Part shown: piece by piece, positions 34,110-58,756 of the stretch | How the letters are laid out: each line of letters starts with the position of its first letter | Numbering within the stretch: position 1 is the first letter of the stretch | Virus record (IMG/VR): IMGVR_UViG_3300035208_004396 | Direction: 5' to 3' (one strand) | From: a virus | Lineage: Duplodnaviria; Caudoviricetes | DNA: 64,000 nucleotides | Made by a program: the position numbers and the translations under genes | Notes under the pieces: generated by a model | Databases searched by the model: none | The model's input: only the letters and a program-made list of their open reading frames with translations | What the model was told of the DNA's origin: nothing

Positions 34110-34595
34110 ATGATTAATTTAGCTGGTTTTATTCAAGAAAGTATAGTCGATGGTCCTGGTATGCGTTCAACTATTTTCGTTCAAGGTTGTAAAAGACACT
34201 GCCCGGGTTGTCAAAATCCTAAAACTTGGTCGTTCGAAACTAAAGAATTAGTGAAAACAGACGATCTTTATTCACGTATAATTAAGGATAGCATTATTAC
34301 AGGTGTAACACTAAGTGGAGGTGAACCTTTCGAACAATCCGAAGAATTGTTGGATCTAGTTAAAAAACTAAGCCCCAAATATAATATCATGATCTATTCG
34401 GGTTATACTTATGAAGAACTTATTCGTGATCCTATTAAATCTGAATTATTATTCGAAACCGATTTTCTTGTCGACGGGGCATTTATCGAAGAGTTAAAAG
34501 ATTTAAGTTTACGTTTCAGAGGTAGTTCGAATCAGCGAATTATCGATGTAAAGAAATCTATAGTAGAAAATGAAATCATTTTAGCAAATATATAG
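34110..34595 (+). CDS. nrdG: Anaerobic RNR activase (radical SAM)
   Basis: SIVDGPG, QGC..HC.GC.N, GVTLSGGEP, LVDG.F, FRGSSNQR. Confidence 0.95.
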   Translation: MINLAGFIQESIVDGPGMRSTIFVQGCKRHCPGCQNPKTWSFETKELVKTDDLYSRIIKDSIITGVTLSGGEPFEQSEELLDLVKKLSPKYNIMIYSGYTYEELIRDPIKSELLFETDFLVDGAFIEELKDLSLRFRGSSNQRIIDVKKSIVENEIILANI

Positions 34596-36585: not shown

Positions 36586-37779
36586 TTATCTGAAATCGAC
36601 TATATTTACACGTTTATTGCTTAAATTTAGCTCATTATTAAGATACTTAGAGATTTGTTTTATGAAGTATTCTACTGTATTAACAGGGACATTTCTACCG
36701 ATGAACCTACAAGATTCACGATATTCCACATTGGGTACTGGGAAATCCTCGGGCATACCAAATAATCTCAAACCATCACGTCTGGATATTTGTCTATGTC
36801 TTATTATATTTACATCACGATAAAATGTCTTGAATAAAATAGCCCCGATGTAATCTACGGGGATATGTATATCGTCCATTTCAAACCAACCTCGTTTAAC
36901 CTTGATTCGTTCGGTGATTTTATCTATCTTTTTAAATTCTTTATCGTTTTTAGCTATACTTTTAAGCAGAGTGCAATCTTCCAAATCGAAAGTTCTAGCA
37001 AAACGACGTTTTTTCAATAAATCACACAATATATCGAAATAATCAGAACCATATTTAGCTTTAGCAAATCTGACATATAATTTGTCAGTGAAAGATTTTT
37101 GCAATTGATCTTCGTTTTCTTCTGGCGGATATTTAGCTAAAAAATCCTTTAACAATACTCTTTTTTCGTGAAAATTCTCAAAAATAGGACAATTAGACTT
37201 AACGAAAATAACCATTGTCCTTGGTCGTTTATGAGGCAAACCATAATTTCTAGTATCAACTTTAATATAACTGACCGAATAACCTTCGATATTTGCTATA
37301 TTATTAATCTTAACTCTTAAATCTTCACCTATTTCTTCAGAAAGACCAATTCCATTTTCATACATGAATACTTTTGGTTTCAAAGATAAAGCAAACTGTA
37401 CACATAATAATTGATAATCGTTAAGATGACAATCCGATGATGCTCTATTTTCTCCCTTAAAACCTTGATTCATCATAGATAAACCAGAACATTTCGGACA
37501 TGATACGATTAAATCTAAATTGGAAATATCTAGTTTATTAAAATCAGATTTAGTATTTTCATCTATAAATGGCCAAAACTCAGACTTTTTATCTAAATCC
37601 GGGTCGCTTAAAGATAAATATGGTCCAGAATAACCATGTTTAACTGCATAATTGTGATATAAATCACATACTTTTTTCAATTTTTGAAATGCTAAAATCG
37701 CAATAGGTTTAGATTTAGTTACATTCTCAACACCTAAAGCAATACCACCCAAATTAGGTTGAATTACAATATACTTCAT
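36586..37779 (-). CDS. DNA cytosine-C5 methyltransferase (divergent)
   Basis: QPNLGG (motif I variant), PKCSGLS (motif IV), YENG (VI), GLPHKRPRT (VIII), RLFGMPEDF, IGRNVPV. Confidence 0.8.
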   Translation of the reverse strand: MKYIVIQPNLGGIALGVENVTKSKPIAILAFQKLKKVCDLYHNYAVKHGYSGPYLSLSDPDLDKKSEFWPFIDENTKSDFNKLDISNLDLIVSCPKCSGLSMMNQGFKGENRASSDCHLNDYQLLCVQFALSLKPKVFMYENGIGLSEEIGEDLRVKINNIANIEGYSVSYIKVDTRNYGLPHKRPRTMVIFVKSNCPIFENFHEKRVLLKDFLAKYPPEENEDQLQKSFTDKLYVRFAKAKYGSDYFDILCDLLKKRRFARTFDLEDCTLLKSIAKNDKEFKKIDKITERIKVKRGWFEMDDIHIPVDYIGAILFKTFYRDVNIIRHRQISRRDGLRLFGMPEDFPVPNVEYRESCRFIGRNVPVNTVEYFIKQISKYLNNELNLSNKRVNIVDFR

Positions 37780-39362: not shown

Positions 39363-39821
39363 TTACACTCCCATTTCAGCAAAAGCTGTACTATAACTAT
39401 TAAATAACCATTTCTCTATCTCAAAAATCGGTTTATATTCAAAACTAGATACTTCGGGCAACATTTTACCATTTTTATCAGGGAAAAAGCTATTACATTT
39501 ATAAGATTTAATATCTGGCATATCTTCAGGTAATAGTTTAATCATGAACAGGATAAGATCTTTATCCTTTCTATATTTCATCGGTTCATCAGAGAACGGA
39601 TACGCGGCTTCTTTATACTTATCAAAAGAATATCCTGTTTCTTCTCGAGCCTCTCTAAATGCACAAGTAAGATAATCTTCACCAATTTCAACATTACCTT
39701 TAGGTAAATCGTAATTGTTTTCTGATTTTTCTCGTCCAGTAGGCAGTTCGGCTAAAAACCGTACACCATCTGTTATTAAAAGTCCAGCAGATATCATATT
39801 AACCCTCAAATAAGATTTCAT
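39363..39821 (-). CDS. NUDIX hydrolase
   Basis: LPKG.VE.GE....CA.REAREETG Nudix box. Confidence 0.9.
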   Translation of the reverse strand: MKSYLRVNMISAGLLITDGVRFLAELPTGREKSENNYDLPKGNVEIGEDYLTCAFREAREETGYSFDKYKEAAYPFSDEPMKYRKDKDLILFMIKLLPEDMPDIKSYKCNSFFPDKNGKMLPEVSSFEYKPIFEIEKWLFNSYSTAFAEMGV

Positions 39822-40975: not shown

Positions 40976-42955
40976 TTAAATATATTCGAAACTATTCTTT
41001 TTACATAATTGAACACCTATCTTTTTACAAAACAGATTACATTTTACCGATTTATTAGTTTTTTCTGGTCCTATTATAATATAATTCGGAGCTTTTATGT
41101 GTTCTTTTATCAAATAAATCCATTTTTCGAAGCTTATATCGCTCATTTCATCTGGTGTTCCAGACCAATGTTCATAATTCTTACCAAAAGGTGGACAAAC
41201 TATAACAGTTTTATCTGTTTCTACTATTTGAGCTAAAACATCTCTTTTAACCCAATGATAATAATCACAAAAATTCTGATTTATATCATAAGCTTCTATT
41301 TTGCCTGTGCTATCTAAACCATGATCCTGAAACCATTGTCTTACACCATCTATTATACCACCGAATCCTGCCATAGGACAATATGCACCATTCGATATAT
41401 CAATCTGCGATTGATATATCATTTTCAAAAGATCATTCTTTCTCAATGCTGTAACCTTAGGTGCTATCTTAGCTATTGTGAATCGATCGAGAATCAAACT
41501 CAGATCATCTGATAATATACCTTTGATATATCGTATACAAAAATTTGGATATTTTCCTGTTTCTAATGCTGAATCTAACATCTTAACCATGTTTTTAACG
41601 GCTTTTAATAGACATTTAGGATCTTTCCAAGCCTCTAATGGTGATTTATATCCGTTTACAAAACAAAACCATATAGGGTGTTCTTTCGGCCATTTAGCAG
41701 TACCAGGAAAAGGAGATTCGATACATTTCTGGACTAAATTATCAATATCTAAATCTCGATCATATAAATAATTGATCATATTTAATGGGTTTTTCCCGTT
41801 AATTATATCTACCTTATTTTCGACCATACATTGATATTTCGCCGAATCGATGGTGTTTTCTTTCTGCATCAAACCTAAAAGATAATCGTTTTTAAGGTCT
41901 ATTATCCTTGAACCTATCTTAAAATCGGGAAAATAATAATGGGTTTCTCCTTCGAATACATAAGGAAACTTAATCTTAGGATGATATTCGAAGTCAATAT
42001 CCATATATTTTAGCAAATTATAGAACTTAACCTCATAATTAGAATCAAATGTTATCCCATCATACTTAATCTTGTGCCACTTTGCTGTGTTAAACTCAAC
42101 TGTCTGTGAATATGATCTAACACCATATCTTTGGAGATTAGTTTCCTGCATTTTCTTAACATTGTGATAATAACGATCACCATATCTTTTTTTGCAAGTA
42201 TCATAACACTTTTCTCTAATTTCCGGTGATGACCAATCGTGTTTGTAACCAAACTTATTCAAATTAGTGGCTTCAATCCTAGATTTTATCTCTTTTCGTC
42301 GCTCAGGACTAATAGATTTCAAAGATTTAGACACCTTTTCTCTATTTTCTGGATCATTCATACTATTATTATCTGAATGTAACTTACTCAAACATTCTTC
42401 TGACCCACAAGTATCTAAAAACTTAAAATGAATAAATTTCCGTTTCTTTCCACAATACGGACATGCATGATCCGAACTATCTACATATCGTTCATAATAA
42501 TCTACAATACTAAGATCTTTATGCTCTTTCTTAATATGCTGTGAAAGCTTATTCTGACTCCTATATCCTAAACCACAAATCTCGCAATGAAACTTCTTCT
42601 CCCTTTCGGCTAAAGATAAAGCTTCAGAATACTTCTCTAAACTACCATACTTTCGAATATGACGTCTATTTATTGCTTCAATTGAAGTTCTACTTGCTCC
42701 ATATTTGGACAACATGGTCTCTCTCTGCTGCTTCCGGACACATACATCTCCACCACATGTACTTAAATATCCACCATGCTCAAACCTACAAGCTTTTCCA
42801 CAATACTTACATACATGTTTGACACCGGGCTCAATATACTGATCATAATAACTCTTGTAATCCACATGATGTGTACGCTGGACATGATTAACTAATCCAC
42901 CTAACTTACTATACTCTTGTCCACAAATCTCACATCTCATATTATCAATATACAA
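40976..42955 (-). CDS. Zinc-finger homing-endonuclease-like protein (PD-(D/E)XK) fused to a C-terminal DNA methyltransferase-like domain
   Basis: Two C2H2 fingers plus CxxC knuckles, T.L.KYG repeats, FDSNYE...YFPDF..IIDLK nuclease; C-term YCPMAGFGG, AYDIN, CPPF; likely start MRCEIC at 42940. Confidence 0.75.
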   Translation of the reverse strand: MYIDNMRCEICGQEYSKLGGLVNHVQRTHHVDYKSYYDQYIEPGVKHVCKYCGKACRFEHGGYLSTCGGDVCVRKQQRETMLSKYGASRTSIEAINRRHIRKYGSLEKYSEALSLAEREKKFHCEICGLGYRSQNKLSQHIKKEHKDLSIVDYYERYVDSSDHACPYCGKKRKFIHFKFLDTCGSEECLSKLHSDNNSMNDPENREKVSKSLKSISPERRKEIKSRIEATNLNKFGYKHDWSSPEIREKCYDTCKKRYGDRYYHNVKKMQETNLQRYGVRSYSQTVEFNTAKWHKIKYDGITFDSNYEVKFYNLLKYMDIDFEYHPKIKFPYVFEGETHYYFPDFKIGSRIIDLKNDYLLGLMQKENTIDSAKYQCMVENKVDIINGKNPLNMINYLYDRDLDIDNLVQKCIESPFPGTAKWPKEHPIWFCFVNGYKSPLEAWKDPKCLLKAVKNMVKMLDSALETGKYPNFCIRYIKGILSDDLSLILDRFTIAKIAPKVTALRKNDLLKMIYQSQIDISNGAYCPMAGFGGIIDGVRQWFQDHGLDSTGKIEAYDINQNFCDYYHWVKRDVLAQIVETDKTVIVCPPFGKNYEHWSGTPDEMSDISFEKWIYLIKEHIKAPNYIIIGPEKTNKSVKCNLFCKKIGVQLCKKNSFEYI

Positions 42956-42989
42956 AAATTCCTGTGTTTATGACACAGGAATTTCAAGA

Positions 42990-44438
42990 TTAAATGTTCA
43001 CTCTATTCTTTAGCTCAGCTAACTTACCGTCATTCCAAGATTTCGTAATGGACTTTCTAGGCGAGCCACTTAAATATCCTGTTATTCTTCGAACTCGGAT
43101 AAAATCATCCTCTAATTCCGATCCACACTTTGGACACTTCTTATCTATTACTCCGTGAAACATACAAGTTGTACCATCTTCTAACTTATTTATGCATGTA
43201 TCACTATCCATGGTACATGTAAAGTATCCCAAGTTAGCCTCGTACATAGCATCAATAACAGATTTTACAGCTTCTAGATTTTTAGAAAGATCTCCGTCTA
43301 GTTTGTAATAGAATATATGCCCAGCATTAGTTATAGCATGAAATGGTGCTTCCCAATCTAGTTTATTAGGTAGAGTAGTTTTCAAGTCGAATGGTAGCAT
43401 GTGGCTGTTTGTGTAATAGCCTTTGCCAAATAGTTGGAAGAGATCCAATTTTGCCAGTTTTTTGTTATTTTGGAATAGATTTTTGTCTATATTTGCGAAT
43501 CTTCCAGCAGTAGCTTCAGCAGGAGTGGCGAAACAGCTCCAGTTCAAATGAGTTTCTTTTTGACAATTTTTAGTAAAATCGAAGATGTGTTGGATTATTT
43601 TGAATCCTAGATCTTTGATTTCTTTGTCTTTTCCCCAAGTTTTGCCCGTTAAGGCTAAGATAGTTTCATATAGTCCGACATATCCTATGCTCAAAGTAGA
43701 TTGTTTTAGAACTTCGCCTATTTTATCAGTTATGTTATGAACTTTATCATCACTTGTGAGGTATAAACCTTGTTGCATAGTGAATGGATAAGATTCATAA
43801 GTTTTGTTTGAGATTAAGTTGAAACGATCTAATAATGATTGTTTTACATCTAATAAGATTTCATCTAGTTTATCAAAGAAGAGTTTAATTCGTTTATCTT
43901 GATCATCTTCGTCTAGATAAGATTCTATTGCCATTCTTGGTAAATTGATGGTATGGAAAGCGAAATTACCACGAGCTGTAGTTTGTTCTGTGCCATTGAT
44001 ATTACCGATTACTCGTGTCCTGCAATTTCCCGAATTAAAACCAGACAATTCAAATCTACCCGATTCAGTTTCAACATCATAAGAATCTGCCACACTATTT
44101 ATGTATCTTACCGAAATAACTTTAACTCTAGTATCGAGATAACGAATTGTATCACCAATTCTTATATCTTTAACATATGTACGTCCACGTTCAAGATATA
44201 GCGGATGATCATCGGTTAATCTTAGAATAATGCGATTTGAAAATTCAACTTCTGTCCAATTATTAACCATAGTATTTTTAATCAATTTTTTGCATTTAAC
44301 AAAATCTTGTAATTCATTATCAAAAACTTCAACATTATATTGTGCCAAATCTATGTATTCTGAAACTTCAGAATATCGATTAATCTTGTATTTTTTGCTG
44401 AATTCATCCCACATGTCTTTAAATTTAATTTTTATCAT
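42990..44438 (-). CDS. nrdD: Anaerobic (class III) RNR C-terminal piece carrying an N-terminal IntC
   Basis: After 138 intein residues: CRTRV, RGNFAFHTINLPR, LSIGYVG, ATPAE, YYTNSH, CPKCG, RRITGYL glycyl-radical motif. Confidence 0.93.
   Translation of the reverse strand: MIKIKFKDMWDEFSKKYKINRYSEVSEYIDLAQYNVEVFDNELQDFVKCKKLIKNTMVNNWTEVEFSNRIILRLTDDHPLYLERGRTYVKDIRIGDTIRYLDTRVKVISVRYINSVADSYDVETESGRFELSGFNSGNCRTRVIGNINGTEQTTARGNFAFHTINLPRMAIESYLDEDDQDKRIKLFFDKLDEILLDVKQSLLDRFNLISNKTYESYPFTMQQGLYLTSDDKVHNITDKIGEVLKQSTLSIGYVGLYETILALTGKTWGKDKEIKDLGFKIIQHIFDFTKNCQKETHLNWSCFATPAEATAGRFANIDKNLFQNNKKLAKLDLFQLFGKGYYTNSHMLPFDLKTTLPNKLDWEAPFHAITNAGHIFYYKLDGDLSKNLEAVKSVIDAMYEANLGYFTCTMDSDTCINKLEDGTTCMFHGVIDKKCPKCGSELEDDFIRVRRITGYLSGSPRKSITKSWNDGKLAELKNRVNI
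44025..44438 (-). other. Split intein C-fragment (IntC, 138 aa) of NrdD
   Basis: Block B LTDDH, block F YDVET, terminal SGN followed by Cys+1. Confidence 0.88.
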
Positions 44439-45091
44439 CTAAGCATTCCTTTTTTGAAATTTTCTGGTATTTCATTATCGGTTTTAAACATCTTATTTTT
44501 AATACCATCATTATACCAATAATACCCTTTGGTTGACATCCTTTTATCTTTTTGTACTACATCTGTACGTCCACGTACAAAGCCTTCTGGTATTTCATCA
44601 GTTTCTTTAAGTGTGATGTTAATAACAGTATTTGTATACCATTTCCTTCCATACATAGCATTTCCTTTACCAAACCTTTGCCCAGTTCTTCTCATAGTTT
44701 CATTCGATTTAGCTGCAATCAATCTAGAATTATTAGCATTTATAATTCGTAATTCTTCAAATTCCTTTGGTGTAATTCTAATTTTATAACCACTTTTTGG
44801 AGAATGTGCTTGATAATGCCAGGCTTGAGCATGTTGCCTAGTTGGAATTGCTTTGTATAACAAATGATGAGCAATAATATGTTCTTTTGCAGTAAAAAAT
44901 ACTAAATTTTCTATACAATTAGAACCTCCATCACACACTGGTATAATATGATGTAATTCTAGATATTTAAAATTGGTCTCATTATAAATGATACCTTTCA
45001 AATTTCTCAAACTTCTGGTACGTGAATAAAAATAATTAAAACGTATCTGTGATTTTTGGCATAAAGCATCATAAATATGTTTATAATTCAT
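44435..45091 (-). CDS. HNH homing endonuclease (T4 Mob-like) inserted within nrdD
   Basis: ELHHIIP..DGG.N..ENLV..TAKEH..AH; GNAMYG and WY.DG/N repeats; ATGA overlap with IntC. Confidence 0.88.
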   Translation of the reverse strand: MNYKHIYDALCQKSQIRFNYFYSRTRSLRNLKGIIYNETNFKYLELHHIIPVCDGGSNCIENLVFFTAKEHIIAHHLLYKAIPTRQHAQAWHYQAHSPKSGYKIRITPKEFEELRIINANNSRLIAAKSNETMRRTGQRFGKGNAMYGRKWYTNTVINITLKETDEIPEGFVRGRTDVVQKDKRMSTKGYYWYNDGIKNKMFKTDNEIPENFKKGMLR

Positions 45092-45213
45092 ATAGTTTTA
45101 CTTTATAAAAAGAGTATTCCGGGTTCTCAATTTTATTTATAAAATATAGGTCTGATCCAGGAAAAATTGCCAGACTTACAGAAAGTGAATAGTATGTACC
45201 TATATTCATTGAA

Positions 45214-46710
45214 TTATTTTCCGTTTACACGAATTTTTAAAGTTTCTTCTCCGTCCGCGCACCCCATAGTAGCAATAGTAGTGCCTGGAATCAGTTTTTT
45301 GATGTGAATTTCACCATTATCAAAAGAATCCAATTGATATAATATAGATCCATCTAAATAATAAGCATTTTCGAACTTTTTAGGTTTTTTCAAGTGTTCT
45401 ATGGTATAATCTAGATCCCCGAACTTAAAGTATCTTACTTCATAATTATCATCTTTTTTATTAACTTTAATGATTTTTTCATCATATTTTATGTAAGGTT
45501 TATTAAATGTAGAATCGCAGTTAACAAAATTCGGATAAAATCTACGAGCTAAACACTTAATAGCATCTAGATAAATATCATAATTTGGATCGATTTCGTC
45601 TTTATTTACACCACGCATCAATTTGAAGATCAAAATAGGGAATATAGCAGTTAAGCCGTCTCCTAGTCCTTCGTATTGTGATTTAATCAAGTTTATAGAA
45701 ACCATACGACCACAATTCGAAGTGTCGAGTCCGAAGTTCAAACTAGAAAAAGGAACCTGATTGCCCGAACGTGATTGTAATGAGTTCAAGTTACCTATAA
45801 GAGCTTCCATAGCTTGATGAGTGTCTAGGTTAGTCTGCTTAATAGCATTATTAACGATTTTCACATTGAATTTGCGATATAAACTGCCAATAGGTTCGTT
45901 AAGTGAATAATCATTAGTATAATCTTGGTAAACACCAGTATATTCGACATAAGAATCAAATTCTTTTTTCAAATTGTGATGAAATGACTTATCTACGAAT
46001 GGAGCTAAATCGAAATCTAAATTGTCATCAGCAATTCCTCCGAACTGTTGATTAGATTGTAATTGTAAAATTACAGCTGTAAGTGCACTGGCAGTTTGTA
46101 TTGAACTAGGAGATCTAAGAAATCCAGTCCCTGTGTCGAAACCATGTTCTAGTAGTTTACCTACTGGAGCGAACAGACAATTGAATGAAAGATTATAAAA
46201 ATTCAGATCGTGAATATGGATTCTTCCCTCTTTATGTTCAGTAGCATATTTACGATCTATATCATTCAATAGATTATACATTTTGTTAGTTTCACTAGCG
46301 ATTTTACCATAAGTACCGGCTGGAGTTGCTCCGGCTTCGTTAGCATTATCTCTTAAAATGTTAGAACTTTTCAAATCGGATTCGGTAATTTCTTTAATTG
46401 TCTTAACAATTTCGGATTTAGTAGTTCTGACTCGATTACGTTCTTCTCGATATAAAATGAATGATTTTGCTGCTTCTTGATGTTTAGCCATCAAAACATT
46501 TTCTACAATATCCTGAATTTCTTCAACTTTTAATGTGTTTTTAGATGAAAGTTCTGCTTTTTCAATAACATCATCTGTAAGTTCATCTAACTCATTTTCA
46601 GTAAATTTAGTATTAGTCTCAACCAAAGAATTCTTTATAGCAGTTACAATTTTAGTCGGATTAAATTTTCTACGTCTACCATCTCTTTTAATTACTGTTT
46701 TTATTGTCAT
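45214..46710 (-). CDS. nrdD: Anaerobic (class III) RNR N-terminal piece ending in IntN
   Basis: ATP cone VIKRDG, NANE, IHIHDL, FNC, QFGG, NSLQSRSGNQVPFSS, IFPILIF, YPNF, ATMG then CADG... Confidence 0.93.
   Translation of the reverse strand: MTIKTVIKRDGRRRKFNPTKIVTAIKNSLVETNTKFTENELDELTDDVIEKAELSSKNTLKVEEIQDIVENVLMAKHQEAAKSFILYREERNRVRTTKSEIVKTIKEITESDLKSSNILRDNANEAGATPAGTYGKIASETNKMYNLLNDIDRKYATEHKEGRIHIHDLNFYNLSFNCLFAPVGKLLEHGFDTGTGFLRSPSSIQTASALTAVILQLQSNQQFGGIADDNLDFDLAPFVDKSFHHNLKKEFDSYVEYTGVYQDYTNDYSLNEPIGSLYRKFNVKIVNNAIKQTNLDTHQAMEALIGNLNSLQSRSGNQVPFSSLNFGLDTSNCGRMVSINLIKSQYEGLGDGLTAIFPILIFKLMRGVNKDEIDPNYDIYLDAIKCLARRFYPNFVNCDSTFNKPYIKYDEKIIKVNKKDDNYEVRYFKFGDLDYTIEHLKKPKKFENAYYLDGSILYQLDSFDNGEIHIKKLIPGTTIATMGCADGEETLKIRVNGK
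45217..45261 (-). other. Split intein N-fragment (IntN, 15 aa: CADGEETLKIRVNGK) of NrdD
   Basis: Intein block A-like C1.DG.T immediately after MG, then stop. Confidence 0.85.
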
Positions 46711-46841
46711 AAACCTCTTTTCTCTTTCCTTATTATTTTAGAATTAAATATATTTATTATTACTTCTATCAAAATGTTGATTTTCTCTACACAAAAAAGA
46801 CCAATGTTTAACATTGGTCTAGAATATGTTTTTTGATCTTT

Positions 46842-47684
46842 TTAATTGAACATATCCTGAATATCGGCTTCTGTAGCAACTGTACCCTTAGTATCAGCAC
46901 TATCAATATTTTCAGGTGTATCCTTTTCTTCTATGTGTCCAATAGGAAGATGAATACGAGCAGTATAACCCTTACAAAGTGATTCATAAGTGTCATGATT
47001 TTCGGTGAGATTAGCCAATGGTTTAATCTGTTTAGCAATAACTGTTAGTTGTTCATCAGTCAAAACTACACCATTCTTATCTGAAATAGGACCAGTCTTT
47101 CTCTTGAACTTATTAGGGATTATTCCACCTTTATGACTCTTGTCGTATTTGTAGATGAAATCGGCACCATTAGTCGGGCTGAAAACATCGATTCCCTCTA
47201 CCAATTCATCAGTTTCATCATCATCATGAGGCTTGGCAATTTCTTTTATAACATTCATCGTGGCTTCAGTAAATTTATAACGGAAAACCTTACCTTCGGT
47301 AGTAGGAGCAGTAGGATTCTCAACTATATAAACATTAGCAATATATTCATTCTTAGCCGGGCCAATTACAGTACGTTGCTTGGACATATCTTCGCCCTTT
47401 TTCTTGAGTTCGAAATACTTTTCACAAAGTGGACATTTGCCCTTATCTTGAATACAATTTCCAACGAAAAATGGTGCTCCTTTAATTCCGCTGCCTACAT
47501 AATGTTTACGAAGCTTAACAAACGGAAAATCTTCTCCCTCTGGGGGCGGCAAGAAACGAAGAACAACTTTCGTTTTACCTTCAGCATTATATGTGTATTT
47601 GAATAAATCTGATAAAGAACTATGACTTGGTTCTTCAATCTTATCTAAAACTTTTTTTGCATCATAACTCGAAAAAATAGGCAT
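46842..47684 (-). CDS. gp32: Single-stranded DNA-binding protein, T4 gp32-like
   Basis: VLRFLP, PFV...H, C.....CPLCE, YIANVYIVENP..P..EGKVF.Y.F, GADF. Confidence 0.9.
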   Translation of the reverse strand: MPIFSSYDAKKVLDKIEEPSHSSLSDLFKYTYNAEGKTKVVLRFLPPPEGEDFPFVKLRKHYVGSGIKGAPFFVGNCIQDKGKCPLCEKYFELKKKGEDMSKQRTVIGPAKNEYIANVYIVENPTAPTTEGKVFRYKFTEATMNVIKEIAKPHDDDETDELVEGIDVFSPTNGADFIYKYDKSHKGGIIPNKFKRKTGPISDKNGVVLTDEQLTVIAKQIKPLANLTENHDTYESLCKGYTARIHLPIGHIEEKDTPENIDSADTKGTVATEADIQDMFN

Positions 47685-56456: not shown

Positions 56457-57356
56457 ATGAATGTGTTCATGAAGAATGAAAATCTCCGAGGTATACATGA
56501 CAATATAGAAATGTCAAGTGAAGATAATTTGAATTTTGCTAAATGTATGAGCGATATTTTTGAATTTTCTAGATATTTCTACATCATCATGGCCGGCATA
56601 GGTTTTGCCCCTATAAAACTCAGAGAATATCAAACCAGAGTGATAAAAGCTCTAGTTACTAAAGTCGAAGGCAAAAACAATAGAATCATAATGCAAGGTA
56701 GACAAACTGGAAAAACTACCATAGCATCATTATATCTACTCTGGTTATTCCTTTTTGAAAAAGACAAAACGTTCGCCATATTAGCAAACAAAGAAGATCA
56801 AGCTCTTGAAATCATGAATAGAATTCAAAATGCTTATCTGAAATTACCACTATGGTTACAATGCCCAGTATTAAACTGGACTCAATCAAAAATCGTATTG
56901 TCTAACGGGAACACAATGTTCACTGCTGCTTCTAGCAGTGATTCTATCCGCGGTAAATCGGTATCATATATGCTAGTTGACGAATTTGCTCACCTAGATG
57001 GTTCTGTAGCTAAAAAGTTCATGGATTCGGTATTCCCTACTCAAGCAGCTGATCCGGATGCTAAACTCATATTGATCTCAACACCTAATGGAACTAATCA
57101 GTTCTATGATACATGGCAAAAAGCTAGAGCTGGCATCAACTCGTTCATTCCGATCATGGTCCAATGGTATGAAGTTCCTGGCAGAGATGAAAAATTCAAA
57201 GAACGTATAATCAAAGACAACGGAATAAGACACTTTATGCAAGAATATGCTTGCGTAGATGGTGATTCTGTCGTAAAAGTTAGAAATAAGGAAAATAATG
57301 CTGTTTTTGAGATAAAAACGAGAGATTTATATCATGAATTATCATTAGTGGATTAA
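56457..57356 (+). CDS. gp17: Terminase large subunit (T4 gp17-like), N-terminal ATPase piece ending in IntN
   Basis: LREYQ, GRQTGKTT, ILANK, LPLWLQ, IRG.S, VDEFAH, ISTPNG.N.FY, WYEVPGRDE, F.QEY then intein. Confidence 0.92.
   Translation: MNVFMKNENLRGIHDNIEMSSEDNLNFAKCMSDIFEFSRYFYIIMAGIGFAPIKLREYQTRVIKALVTKVEGKNNRIIMQGRQTGKTTIASLYLLWLFLFEKDKTFAILANKEDQALEIMNRIQNAYLKLPLWLQCPVLNWTQSKIVLSNGNTMFTAASSSDSIRGKSVSYMLVDEFAHLDGSVAKKFMDSVFPTQAADPDAKLILISTPNGTNQFYDTWQKARAGINSFIPIMVQWYEVPGRDEKFKERIIKDNGIRHFMQEYACVDGDSVVKVRNKENNAVFEIKTRDLYHELSLVD
57252..57353 (+). other. Split intein N-fragment (IntN, 34 aa: CVDGDSVVKVRNKENNAVFEIKTRDLYHELSLVD)
   Basis: Block A CVDGDS, I.T.DLY..L, then stop; QEYA|C junction resembles that of known TerL split inteins. 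Confidence 0.85.
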
Positions 57357-57397: not shown

Positions 57398-58756
57398 ATG
57401 AGATGTGAGATATGTTTAAGAGAATTCAGTCCTAATGGTTTAGCTGCCCATATAGAGAACAGTCATAAAGAAATAAATGTTAAAGATTATTATGACAAAT
57501 ATCTTCGAAAAGAAAACGAAGGTAAATGTAAGATATGTGGAAAACCAACTAGATTCAAGGGTTTTAGAGGGTATTCTAAATATTGTTCGATGAAATGTGT
57601 TTGGCATGATAAAGATATAGTAAAGAAGAGAAATTCACATACAGATTTTGACAAAGCATCTAAAAAAGCAAGTTTTGTAAAGTTTGCAAAATATGGGAGT
57701 GGTATTAGCGAGTCTGAGAGATATCGTAGAATTGAAAGATCTAAAGCTAATTTGTCCCGTATTTTGAGTGAAAATCATTGTGAATTGATAGATATAGTTC
57801 TGAAAAATGGTAAGATTTATTCAGTTAAGTATCGTTGTTCTATATGTAATTCCGAGTATACAAGGGTAAGAAGTGGAATTGACCGAAATTATCGAGATGG
57901 AAAGGGCGGATTTTGTCCTAATTGTTCACCTAAGTATAGTAATCCAGAAGGAGAGATTTACAATTATATCAAATCTATCTATTCCGGTTCGATCATTATG
58001 CATGACCGGAAGTGTTTAGCTGGACATGAATTAGATATCTTCATACCCGATGTTAATATCGCAATAGAATATGACAGTTTTCATTTTCACGATGAAAATC
58101 ATGTAACTAAGTTTTATCATATAGAAAAAACAGAAGCTTGTTTAGCTAAAAATATCAAGTTGATCCATATATTCGAAGATGAGTGGCGAGATCGAAAAGA
58201 TATCGTTAAGTCTAGACTTTCTGGATTTTTTCACAAAAACAAGGTAATCTATGCAAGGAAAACTGAGTTTAGAGTTGTTTCTCATCAAAATGCTAAAGAA
58301 TTTCTAATAGAGAATCACATACAAGGATATTGTATTTCTAAAATAAGATATGGTTTATATCTAAAAGATGAATTAGTTGCCTTGATGACTTTTGGTAAGT
58401 CTAGATTTTCCGATGAATTCGAGATGTTACGTTTCTGTAATAAGAAATATACTAATGTGGTAGGTGGAGCTAGTAAATTGATTAAACATGCCGGATTATC
58501 TTTCGTAACTTATGCTGATAGAAGATGGTCTAATGGTGATTTATATCGTAAATTGGGAATGAAGTTTCTAGGAAAAACAGAGCCGAATTATCATTATATT
58601 GTTAAACACAGATTAGAAAGTAGGTTCAAATATCAAAAACACAAGCTTATTTTAGCCGGATTCGATCCAAATCTTTCCGAACATGATATTATGAAAAAAC
58701 TAGAAATTTTCAGGATATATGACTCTGGTATGTTGAAATTTTCATATAATAGCTAA
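57398..58756 (+). CDS. Zinc-finger Hef-like homing endonuclease (PD-(D/E)XK/Vsr-like)
   Basis: MRCEIC C2H2, CKICG, S.PE.EI, ELDIFIP...AIEYD...H, LIHIFEDEW, ARKTE, GGASKL, YADRRWS.G, IYDSG. Confidence 0.85.
   Translation: MRCEICLREFSPNGLAAHIENSHKEINVKDYYDKYLRKENEGKCKICGKPTRFKGFRGYSKYCSMKCVWHDKDIVKKRNSHTDFDKASKKASFVKFAKYGSGISESERYRRIERSKANLSRILSENHCELIDIVLKNGKIYSVKYRCSICNSEYTRVRSGIDRNYRDGKGGFCPNCSPKYSNPEGEIYNYIKSIYSGSIIMHDRKCLAGHELDIFIPDVNIAIEYDSFHFHDENHVTKFYHIEKTEACLAKNIKLIHIFEDEWRDRKDIVKSRLSGFFHKNKVIYARKTEFRVVSHQNAKEFLIENHIQGYCISKIRYGLYLKDELVALMTFGKSRFSDEFEMLRFCNKKYTNVVGGASKLIKHAGLSFVTYADRRWSNGDLYRKLGMKFLGKTEPNYHYIVKHRLESRFKYQKHKLILAGFDPNLSEHDIMKKLEIFRIYDSGMLKFSYNS

Follow-up and report, generated by a model that had tools for sequence, protein, structure and literature searches.

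The 64,000-nucleotide (nt) stretch of DNA analysed here (IMG/VR record IMGVR_UViG_3300035208_004396, hereafter the window), which is from an uncultured T4-like phage, contains an nrdD gene for a class III ribonucleotide reductase (RNR) that is broken directly before the codon of its radical-initiating cysteine, with an HNH homing-endonuclease gene between the two halves. At the break each half runs on into a fragment of an intein, 15 residues on the N-terminal side (IntN) and 138 on the C-terminal side (IntC). We consider it very likely that the two fragments constitute a functional, cysteine-dependent (class 1) trans-splicing split intein, broken at the position known as S1 and housed in an HNH-type fractured gene.

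Three co-oriented minus-strand genes make up the locus, as read from a six-frame list of open reading frames (ORFs) and their translations. The first, nrdD-N (45214..46710), encodes 498 residues ending in ...TTIATMG-CADGEETLKIRVNGK-stop; its N-extein (45262..46710, 483 residues, C-terminal end TTIATMG) comprises an ATP-cone (Pfam, 3e-20) and the first half of the NrdD barrel (NRDD, 6e-62, profile positions 1-250). The last, IntC+nrdD-C (42990..44438), encodes 482 residues that begin MIKIKFKDMW and read SGN/CRTRV at residues 136-142. Its C-extein (42990..44024, 344 residues and a stop) opens with CRTRV, takes up the NRDD profile at positions 260-560 (6e-82) and carries a Zn-ribbon and the glycyl-radical motif RVRRITGYL, with Gly_radical also matched. 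The hallmarks of a class III NrdD are thus all present: both halves of the NRDD barrel, the radical-initiator cysteine and the C-terminal glycyl-radical motif. When the protein is aligned with Prevotella copri NrdD (PcNrdD, PDB 8p23), C139, the +1 cysteine of the intein, falls at chain index 420 and the glycine of RITGY at index 715; that glycine has the published number Gly711, an offset of +4 by which C139 is the counterpart of Cys416, the radical initiator at the tip of a loop through the barrel, Gly711 being the site of the glycyl radical (PMC11226230). This bears out the first-pass annotation of the window, a reading of the letters and translations that had taken the cysteine of the rejoined MGCR for the thiyl-radical residue. 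An nrdG-like activase gene elsewhere in the window (34110..34595, plus strand; 38.6% identity, E 1e-24 by tblastn with the NrdG of locus L011) probably supplies the partner that NrdD needs for activity. Near-identical DNA was not found among GenBank phages.

IntN (45214..45261, minus strand) consists of 15 codons, CADGEETLKIRVNGK, and a TAA stop. Its position 1 is a cysteine directly after ATMG, and this Cys1 is invariant across all relatives. IntC (44025..44438, minus strand; M1 to N138) has the block B threonine and histidine (T75-x-x-H78, in LTDDHPL), a block F reading DSYDVETE and the terminal SGN; T75 and H78 are invariant in 14 aligned sequences, as are N138 and C139 (C+1). Since an in-frame TAG lies directly 5' of the IntC ATG, no earlier start is possible and IntC is exactly 138 residues long. 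The two ORFs are therefore separate, each an extein joined to an intein fragment, with a stop codon closing IntN. In these respects the translations agree with what had been described beforehand: an N gene ending in ATMG, a 15-residue tail and a stop, a C gene beginning with 138 intein residues (TDDH in block B, YDVET in block F, SGN and then CRTRV), and an HNH gene between them that is coupled to IntC by ATGA.

The first-pass annotation had also proposed that IntN and IntC read as one continuous intein, and contiguous homologues at the same insertion site (MG/C) support this, aligning over the break without a gap. These are NrdD inteins carried on one polypeptide, either as mini-inteins or with a LAGLIDADG domain at the canonical site, and they share with the window intein the insertion site and blocks A, B, F and G. 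In a tblastn search of GenBank phages the nrdD of Eggerthella phage EL753P1 covers the intein part of the query; its product of 952 residues reads ...AYMG/CADERETIIVKDG..., followed by a LAGLIDADG domain and then ...SGINSHN/CRTRV. A second LAGLIDADG maxi-intein at MG/C is present in IMG/VR (L006), contiguous mini-inteins at this site come from IMG/VR and a large protein collection (L007, P0014-P0018, P0022, P0024), and the same-site contiguous homologues in the protein collection as a whole are P0014-P0024. L006 and L007 are both jumbo-phage contigs. The window intein is 36-46% identical to mini-inteins (P0016, P0017, P0022, P0024) and 40-45% identical to maxi-inteins (P0019-P0023), in alignments that did not contain EL753P1, L006 or L007. 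In the joint alignment the column at the break is free of gaps, the initiator methionine of IntC standing where the contiguous inteins have M, L, I or W, as in CADKNEKITFIYKDT-MYDLSF (P0016) and CVQGDEVVTYRVDEK-LYVESF (P0019), and IntN likewise aligns without gaps to their first 15 residues. Because of this gap-free fit, no residues have been gained or lost at the break. By homology to the intact MG/C inteins, then, the two tails are the halves of one intein. Two of the relatives have additional interruptions: P0021 is an NrdD with two inteins, a LAGLIDADG maxi-intein at MG/C and a mini-intein at ...ATPAEGL/CLAGDT...VHN/SGRF, and L007 (4130-4629) is a jumbo-phage nrdD with an interruption of ~500 nt upstream of its contiguous MG/C mini-intein.

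Pfam searched with IntC alone returned no intein family at E<=10, and the identity of the intein was revealed only by a family profile against PDB sequences, which reached the KlbA intein (2.8e-7) and the NrdJ-1 and RadA inteins, and by a fold search. For the latter the intein of the closely related locus L005, in which IntN is identical to that of the window and IntC differs by one residue, was modelled as a single read-through chain with the four stops of its 39-nt in-frame spacer set to Gly. AlphaFold2, given 10 aligned sequences, returned a mean predicted local distance difference test score (pLDDT) of 87.3 and a predicted template modelling score of 0.81, the chain being disordered only in the artificial linker (residues 19-31) and at its last three positions. 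Every listed Foldseek match in the PDB was an intein or a HINT-family domain; the best was the TFIIB Mvu mini-intein (5o9i, 3.4e-10), and others were RadA, NrdJ-1, the PolB16 OarG intein (8cpo, E 3.8e-8) and VidaL (6vgv, TMt 0.84, root-mean-square deviation 2.6). The model, the fold matches and the profile matches together argue for the HINT fold that had been expected of the joined fragments. The model has a strand at residues 11-16 (IntN 7-12), then the break, then a strand at 34-38 and a helix at 39-49, placing the break right after beta-strand 2 and before helix alpha1, which is the S1 site.

Association of the fragments was modelled with two chains, IntC followed by 12 extein residues and the last 25 residues of the N-extein followed by IntN. 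The interface score ipSAE was 0.88 in all three runs and 0.01 in the best of three controls, a value that may reflect likeness to solved inteins; in a benchmark, 58 of 80 solved complexes scored at this level, as did 2 of 110 mismatched pairs. The runs had at least 68% of their contacts in common, with a partner pLDDT of at least 55, and IntN is predicted to touch IntC at residues 1-7, block B (72-79), block F (117-122) and block G (129-139). These predictions support binding of IntN to IntC.

The split form is not peculiar to the window. Split C-halves occur in at least 10 clusters (P0003, P0005-P0013) from diverged phages, all with the same start point and all ending SGN/C, and over the intein they are 54-76% identical to the window. 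The whole fractured-gene layout recurs in L014 (a 15-residue IntN identical to that of the window, an HNH protein of 219 residues), L015 (a 61-residue IntN, an HNH protein of 234 residues) and L016 (IntN CADGEETVKIRVNKK and an HNH gene). L011 has a 61-residue IntN and a 384-residue ORF, and in L009, with a 59-residue IntN, the endonuclease has decayed to a remnant of 64 residues while the split persists. The long IntN of 59-61 residues is seen in a sister clade (L009:2180-3814, L011:1252-2853, L015:1519-3168), in which an insert of ~45 residues, poorly conserved, separates the first ~10 residues (CADGEETLK...) from the stop, and in which IntC has four extra N-terminal residues.

Two further irregularities were seen in the exteins. 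In L016 (5001-7467) there is a second nrdD break, after ...RFATIDKNKF, with no evident intein motifs; the middle fragment (P0007, 388 residues) has a non-NrdD tail of ~50 residues and is followed by a decayed zinc-finger/DUF7487-like ORF and then by a C-terminal fragment of 155-159 residues. In the window, a stretch of ~75 residues just before MG/C (45262-45500, minus strand; N-extein residues ~405-478) has no Pfam NRDD match, is variable among relatives and has a 12-nt indel in the allele of L005 and X5. A common module linking the ~45-residue insert of the long IntN forms (L009, L011, L015), the tail of the L016/P0007 middle fragment and the N-extein insert of the window was considered and is not supported (BLASTP E 6.8-7.7).

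Selection on the split form is apparent in the comparison of the window with L014. Their N-exteins are only 64% identical, and in the codons of IntN there are 9 synonymous differences and 0 nonsynonymous ones, a pattern for which the chance, if changes fell randomly over sites, is roughly (10/45)^9, or ~1e-6. The ratio of nonsynonymous to synonymous substitution rates (dN/dS) is 0.10 for IntC, 0.12 for the N-extein and 0.17 for the HNH gene, all rough figures, dS being near saturation here and saturated in most comparisons. Both nrdD ORFs are intact in all six of the loci examined, with exteins 52-99% identical to one another.

Several points nonetheless weigh against functional splicing. The spliced product is a prediction from sequence and models. 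The penultimate residue of block G, ordinarily His, is Gly137 in the window, as the first-pass annotation had noted; Gly is shared by all 10 split clusters, whereas all contiguous relatives have His, and its substitution usually slows cyclisation of the terminal Asn. Active inteins without a penultimate His have been described. High scores in structure and complex prediction can come from solved inteins that the programs have learned, and in the two-chain model the pLDDT of the partner chain is only ~56, 25 of its 40 residues being extein out of context. The dN/dS figures carry the imprecision already given. As for RNA, X9 and X10 are labelled RNA-Seq and are probably DNA, and the metatranscriptome X16 covers only 46155-46643, within nrdD-N; neither co-transcription nor the absence of RNA splicing can for this reason be derived from them.

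The loss of the penultimate His from every split form would also suit the alternative that survives best, in which the halves of NrdD assemble non-covalently as separate chains and the intein remnants are inert. It has a precedent in the mobE-split NrdA of phage Aeh1, which, going by its citation in Dassa et al. 2009, works as separate chains. Such an enzyme would have to tolerate a break at the tip of the Cys-radical loop together with 153 extra residues, and inert remnants are hard to reconcile with the invariance of C1, T75, H78 and N138 over the split clade, with the 9-to-0 pattern of changes in IntN, or with a predicted fold that puts the catalytic residues in an intein active site. We regard this explanation as improbable. 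Somewhat less probable again is that nrdD was killed by HNH invasion and its pieces are drifting as a decaying pseudogene: fragmented RNR genes of unsettled activity have been reported in several phages, but here the exteins have dN/dS of ~0.1, both ORFs are preserved in every locus examined despite the divergence of the exteins, nrdG is retained, and the split has outlived the endonuclease in L005 and L009.

The gene that separates the intein halves (44435..45091, minus strand) encodes a free-standing protein of 218 residues, its stop overlapping the IntC start as ATGA. It matches Pfam HNH at 7e-4 (20.1 bits, just below the 21.4-bit cut-off) and the PHROG 655 'homing endonuclease' family at 6e-24, is 32% identical to the free-standing 'intron-like' endonucleases of T-even phages (tblastn, E 7e-11), and retains an intact catalytic motif, ELHHIIP...N...H; against PDB sequences there were marginal matches to the HNH motif only (E >= 0.1). 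It is thus predicted to be a homing endonuclease like the Mob proteins of T-even phages. A spacer of 122 nt (45092..45213, minus strand) separates the IntN stop from the HNH start, and in it a T4-late-promoter-like octamer, TATAAATA, occurs at 45134-45141 (minus strand), 43 nt upstream of the HNH ATG. The octamer is also in the spacers of L014 and L015, and is not enriched in the AT-rich window (15 found, 24 expected); it might drive late expression of the HNH gene.

An allele from which the endonuclease has been lost is found in L005, which is otherwise 97-99% identical to the window. It lacks a segment of 736 nt (44477..45212) that takes in the spacer and nearly all of the HNH gene; of the latter only the final ~37 nt are left, and both nrdD ORFs are intact and still split. 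Because what remains of the spacer encodes the C-terminal motif of the HNH protein, L005 arose by deletion and does not represent an ancestral empty site. Contigs of X5, from landfill DNA, and X9, from wastewater, share its joint (44476->45213), so the 736-nt skip is a DNA polymorphism and not the product of RNA splicing. As an allele without the endonuclease stays split and intact, the HNH gene would be dispensable for splicing. The earlier suggestion that the split arose by HNH invasion of a mini-intein fits both with the contiguous mini- and maxi-intein relatives and with this later, HNH-deleted allele.

Other endonuclease-like genes are found at the same locus. Directly downstream of nrdD-C in the window is a 659-residue ORF (40976-42955, minus strand) with C2H2 zinc fingers, DUF7487 and matches to PHROG 'homing endonuclease' families, and DUF7487 genes also follow nrdD-C in L009, L011 and L016. 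With these DUF7487/zinc-finger endonuclease-like genes after nrdD-C, several endonuclease families appear to share the nrdD locus as a hot spot.

RNA splicing had been named beforehand as one finding that would overturn protein splicing. An Rfam scan of 42500-47200 found no family, Intron_gpI included, at E<=1, while the same kind of scan on the L007 nrdD interruption, as a positive control, gave a partial, sub-threshold Intron_gpI match (22.5 bits, E 0.0025); a 146-nt spacer region folds no better than shuffled sequence (z 0.22), and the overlap of the HNH stop with the IntC start means that a 3' intron core could not be accommodated. A group I intron at the window nrdD was rejected on the Rfam and folding results. 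That the HNH ORF sits in a group I intron or other self-splicing RNA, whose removal would give a contiguous intein-containing nrdD, is the least probable of the alternatives, since the precedents for it (group I introns in the nrdD of T4 and in related jumbo-phage nrdD genes, and the L007 match, which belongs to a different nrdD interruption) are set against these results and against a 736-nt skip that turned up in a DNA run, with four in-frame stops remaining.

Terminator-like hairpins were found upstream of nrdD-N, after gene 32 (46798..46820, minus strand), and just after the nrdD-C stop (42955..42985, minus strand), with none between the three genes, an arrangement consistent with a single transcription unit.

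We hypothesize that trans-splicing at this locus would proceed as follows. The three genes would be transcribed as one unit, and NrdD-N(483)-IntN(15) and IntC(138)-NrdD-C(344) would be made as separate polypeptides; for IntC a Shine-Dalgarno sequence, AAGGA, lies within the 3'-terminal part of the HNH gene. The 15-residue IntN would dock on IntC as a hairpin, completing the HINT horseshoe, after which an N-S acyl shift at Cys1, transfer of the thioester to Cys+1 (the future thiyl-radical cysteine), cyclisation of Asn138 and an S-N shift would yield an NrdD of 827 residues that reads ATMG-CRTRV and could then be activated by NrdG. The HNH gene would be the selfish element that made and spread the split. 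A more elaborate version, to which we give a small chance, is that splicing is redox-gated, a disulfide between Cys1 and the +1 Cys or oxidation of their thiols blocking it in air, that the clade-specific change of His to Gly tunes C-cleavage to association of the fragments, and that the pair is a fast one of the Cys-type S1 kind, its 15-residue IntN being within reach of chemical synthesis. If such gating were real, assembly of the class III RNR, which is sensitive to oxygen, would be restricted to anoxic, reducing conditions, and the intein would be more than a parasite.

In natural atypical split inteins the IntN fragment is 15-37 residues long and the break lies either at S1, 'immediately following beta2', as in VidaL and PolB16, or at S2, after alpha1, as in AceL and GOS TerL (PMC13014065), a range that agrees with the one given in the first-pass annotation. 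VidaL, with 16 residues, and PolB16, with 15, slow and called 'record-short', are the only natural IntN fragments under ~25 residues named in the literature examined, so the window IntN, placed beforehand at the short extreme, ties with PolB16. Like VidaL and the PolB16 OarG intein, the window intein has an S1 break after beta-strand 2, an IntN of 15-16 residues, a long IntC and the HINT fold, and like VidaL it is cysteine-dependent. It differs from both in its penultimate Gly and in a +1 nucleophile that is the catalytic radical cysteine of the enzyme, and its host protein is NrdD where that of PolB16 is PolB; VidaL and PolB16 have been characterised biochemically, whereas the window intein is known from sequence and models. 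Neither VidaL nor PolB16 was reached by the IntC profile among PDB sequences, which suggests an independent origin, and the window intein and its split relatives apparently represent a third lineage of split inteins with a very short IntN.

The locus also answers to the description of fractured genes, in which the halves of a split intein flank a free-standing endonuclease gene (Dassa et al. 2009, PMC2677866). As in the examples of that study, the extein halves lie in one locus and one orientation and the endonuclease stop overlaps the downstream start, and the gp41-7 locus, which has no endonuclease, is comparable to L005. The endonucleases reported there are of the GIY-YIG or Vsr-like kind, at 26-27 loci without NrdD, whereas the window has HNH and NrdD; the same authors predicted that HNH endonucleases would be able to fracture genes, and proposed endonuclease loss as the next step. 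Split positions were not given in that study; canonical split inteins break at the homing-endonuclease insertion point (PMC13014065), and the window intein breaks at S1. The nrdA/mobE locus of phage Aeh1, as cited, resembles that of the window in having a Mob-like HNH gene between the halves of a phage RNR catalytic subunit, and differs in that it has no intein and the halves act non-covalently, whereas in the window the endonuclease gene lies between the halves of an intein. Gut jumbo phages have been reported to carry fragmented nrdD genes with inserted endonuclease or intein domains, without split-intein analysis. What is new here is NrdD as the host protein of an S1 split intein in an HNH-type fractured gene, S1 split inteins and fractured genes being both already known.

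Beyond nrdD, the window encodes gp32, a T4-type prohead protease, thymidylate synthase and TerL, and its G+C content is ~30%. The phage is found in landfill, groundwater and wastewater metagenomes, and also on a contig of at least 206 kb. A TerL N-terminal fragment of 299 residues (56457-57356, plus strand) ends ...FMQEYA/CVDGDSVVKVRNKENNAVFEIKTRDLYHELSLVD-stop, and its 34-residue tail, with a block-A-like start, looks like a second atypical split-intein N fragment, putatively of the S2 (TerL-like) type; downstream of it, at 57398-58756, is an endonuclease-like ORF. A gene for a C-5 cytosine DNA methyltransferase (36586-37779, minus strand; Pfam 3e-18) and, near it in the same minus-strand block, a NUDIX gene (39363-39821) were also seen.

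An IntN short enough for peptide synthesis is wanted for protein semisynthesis and live-cell protein editing, and few natural ones are available; the natural diversity on offer here includes two 15-residue IntN variants, IntN forms of 59-61 residues and ten IntC clusters. One allele family displays, as a nearly complete natural series, the stages of the 'gene-breaking' model for the origin of split inteins, here with the break at an atypical site, from a LAGLIDADG maxi-intein through a mini-intein and an HNH-fractured split intein to a split intein without an endonuclease. If the window intein is functional, an essential enzyme of the phage, that of its anaerobic deoxynucleoside triphosphate supply, would depend on trans-splicing at its own catalytic cysteine.

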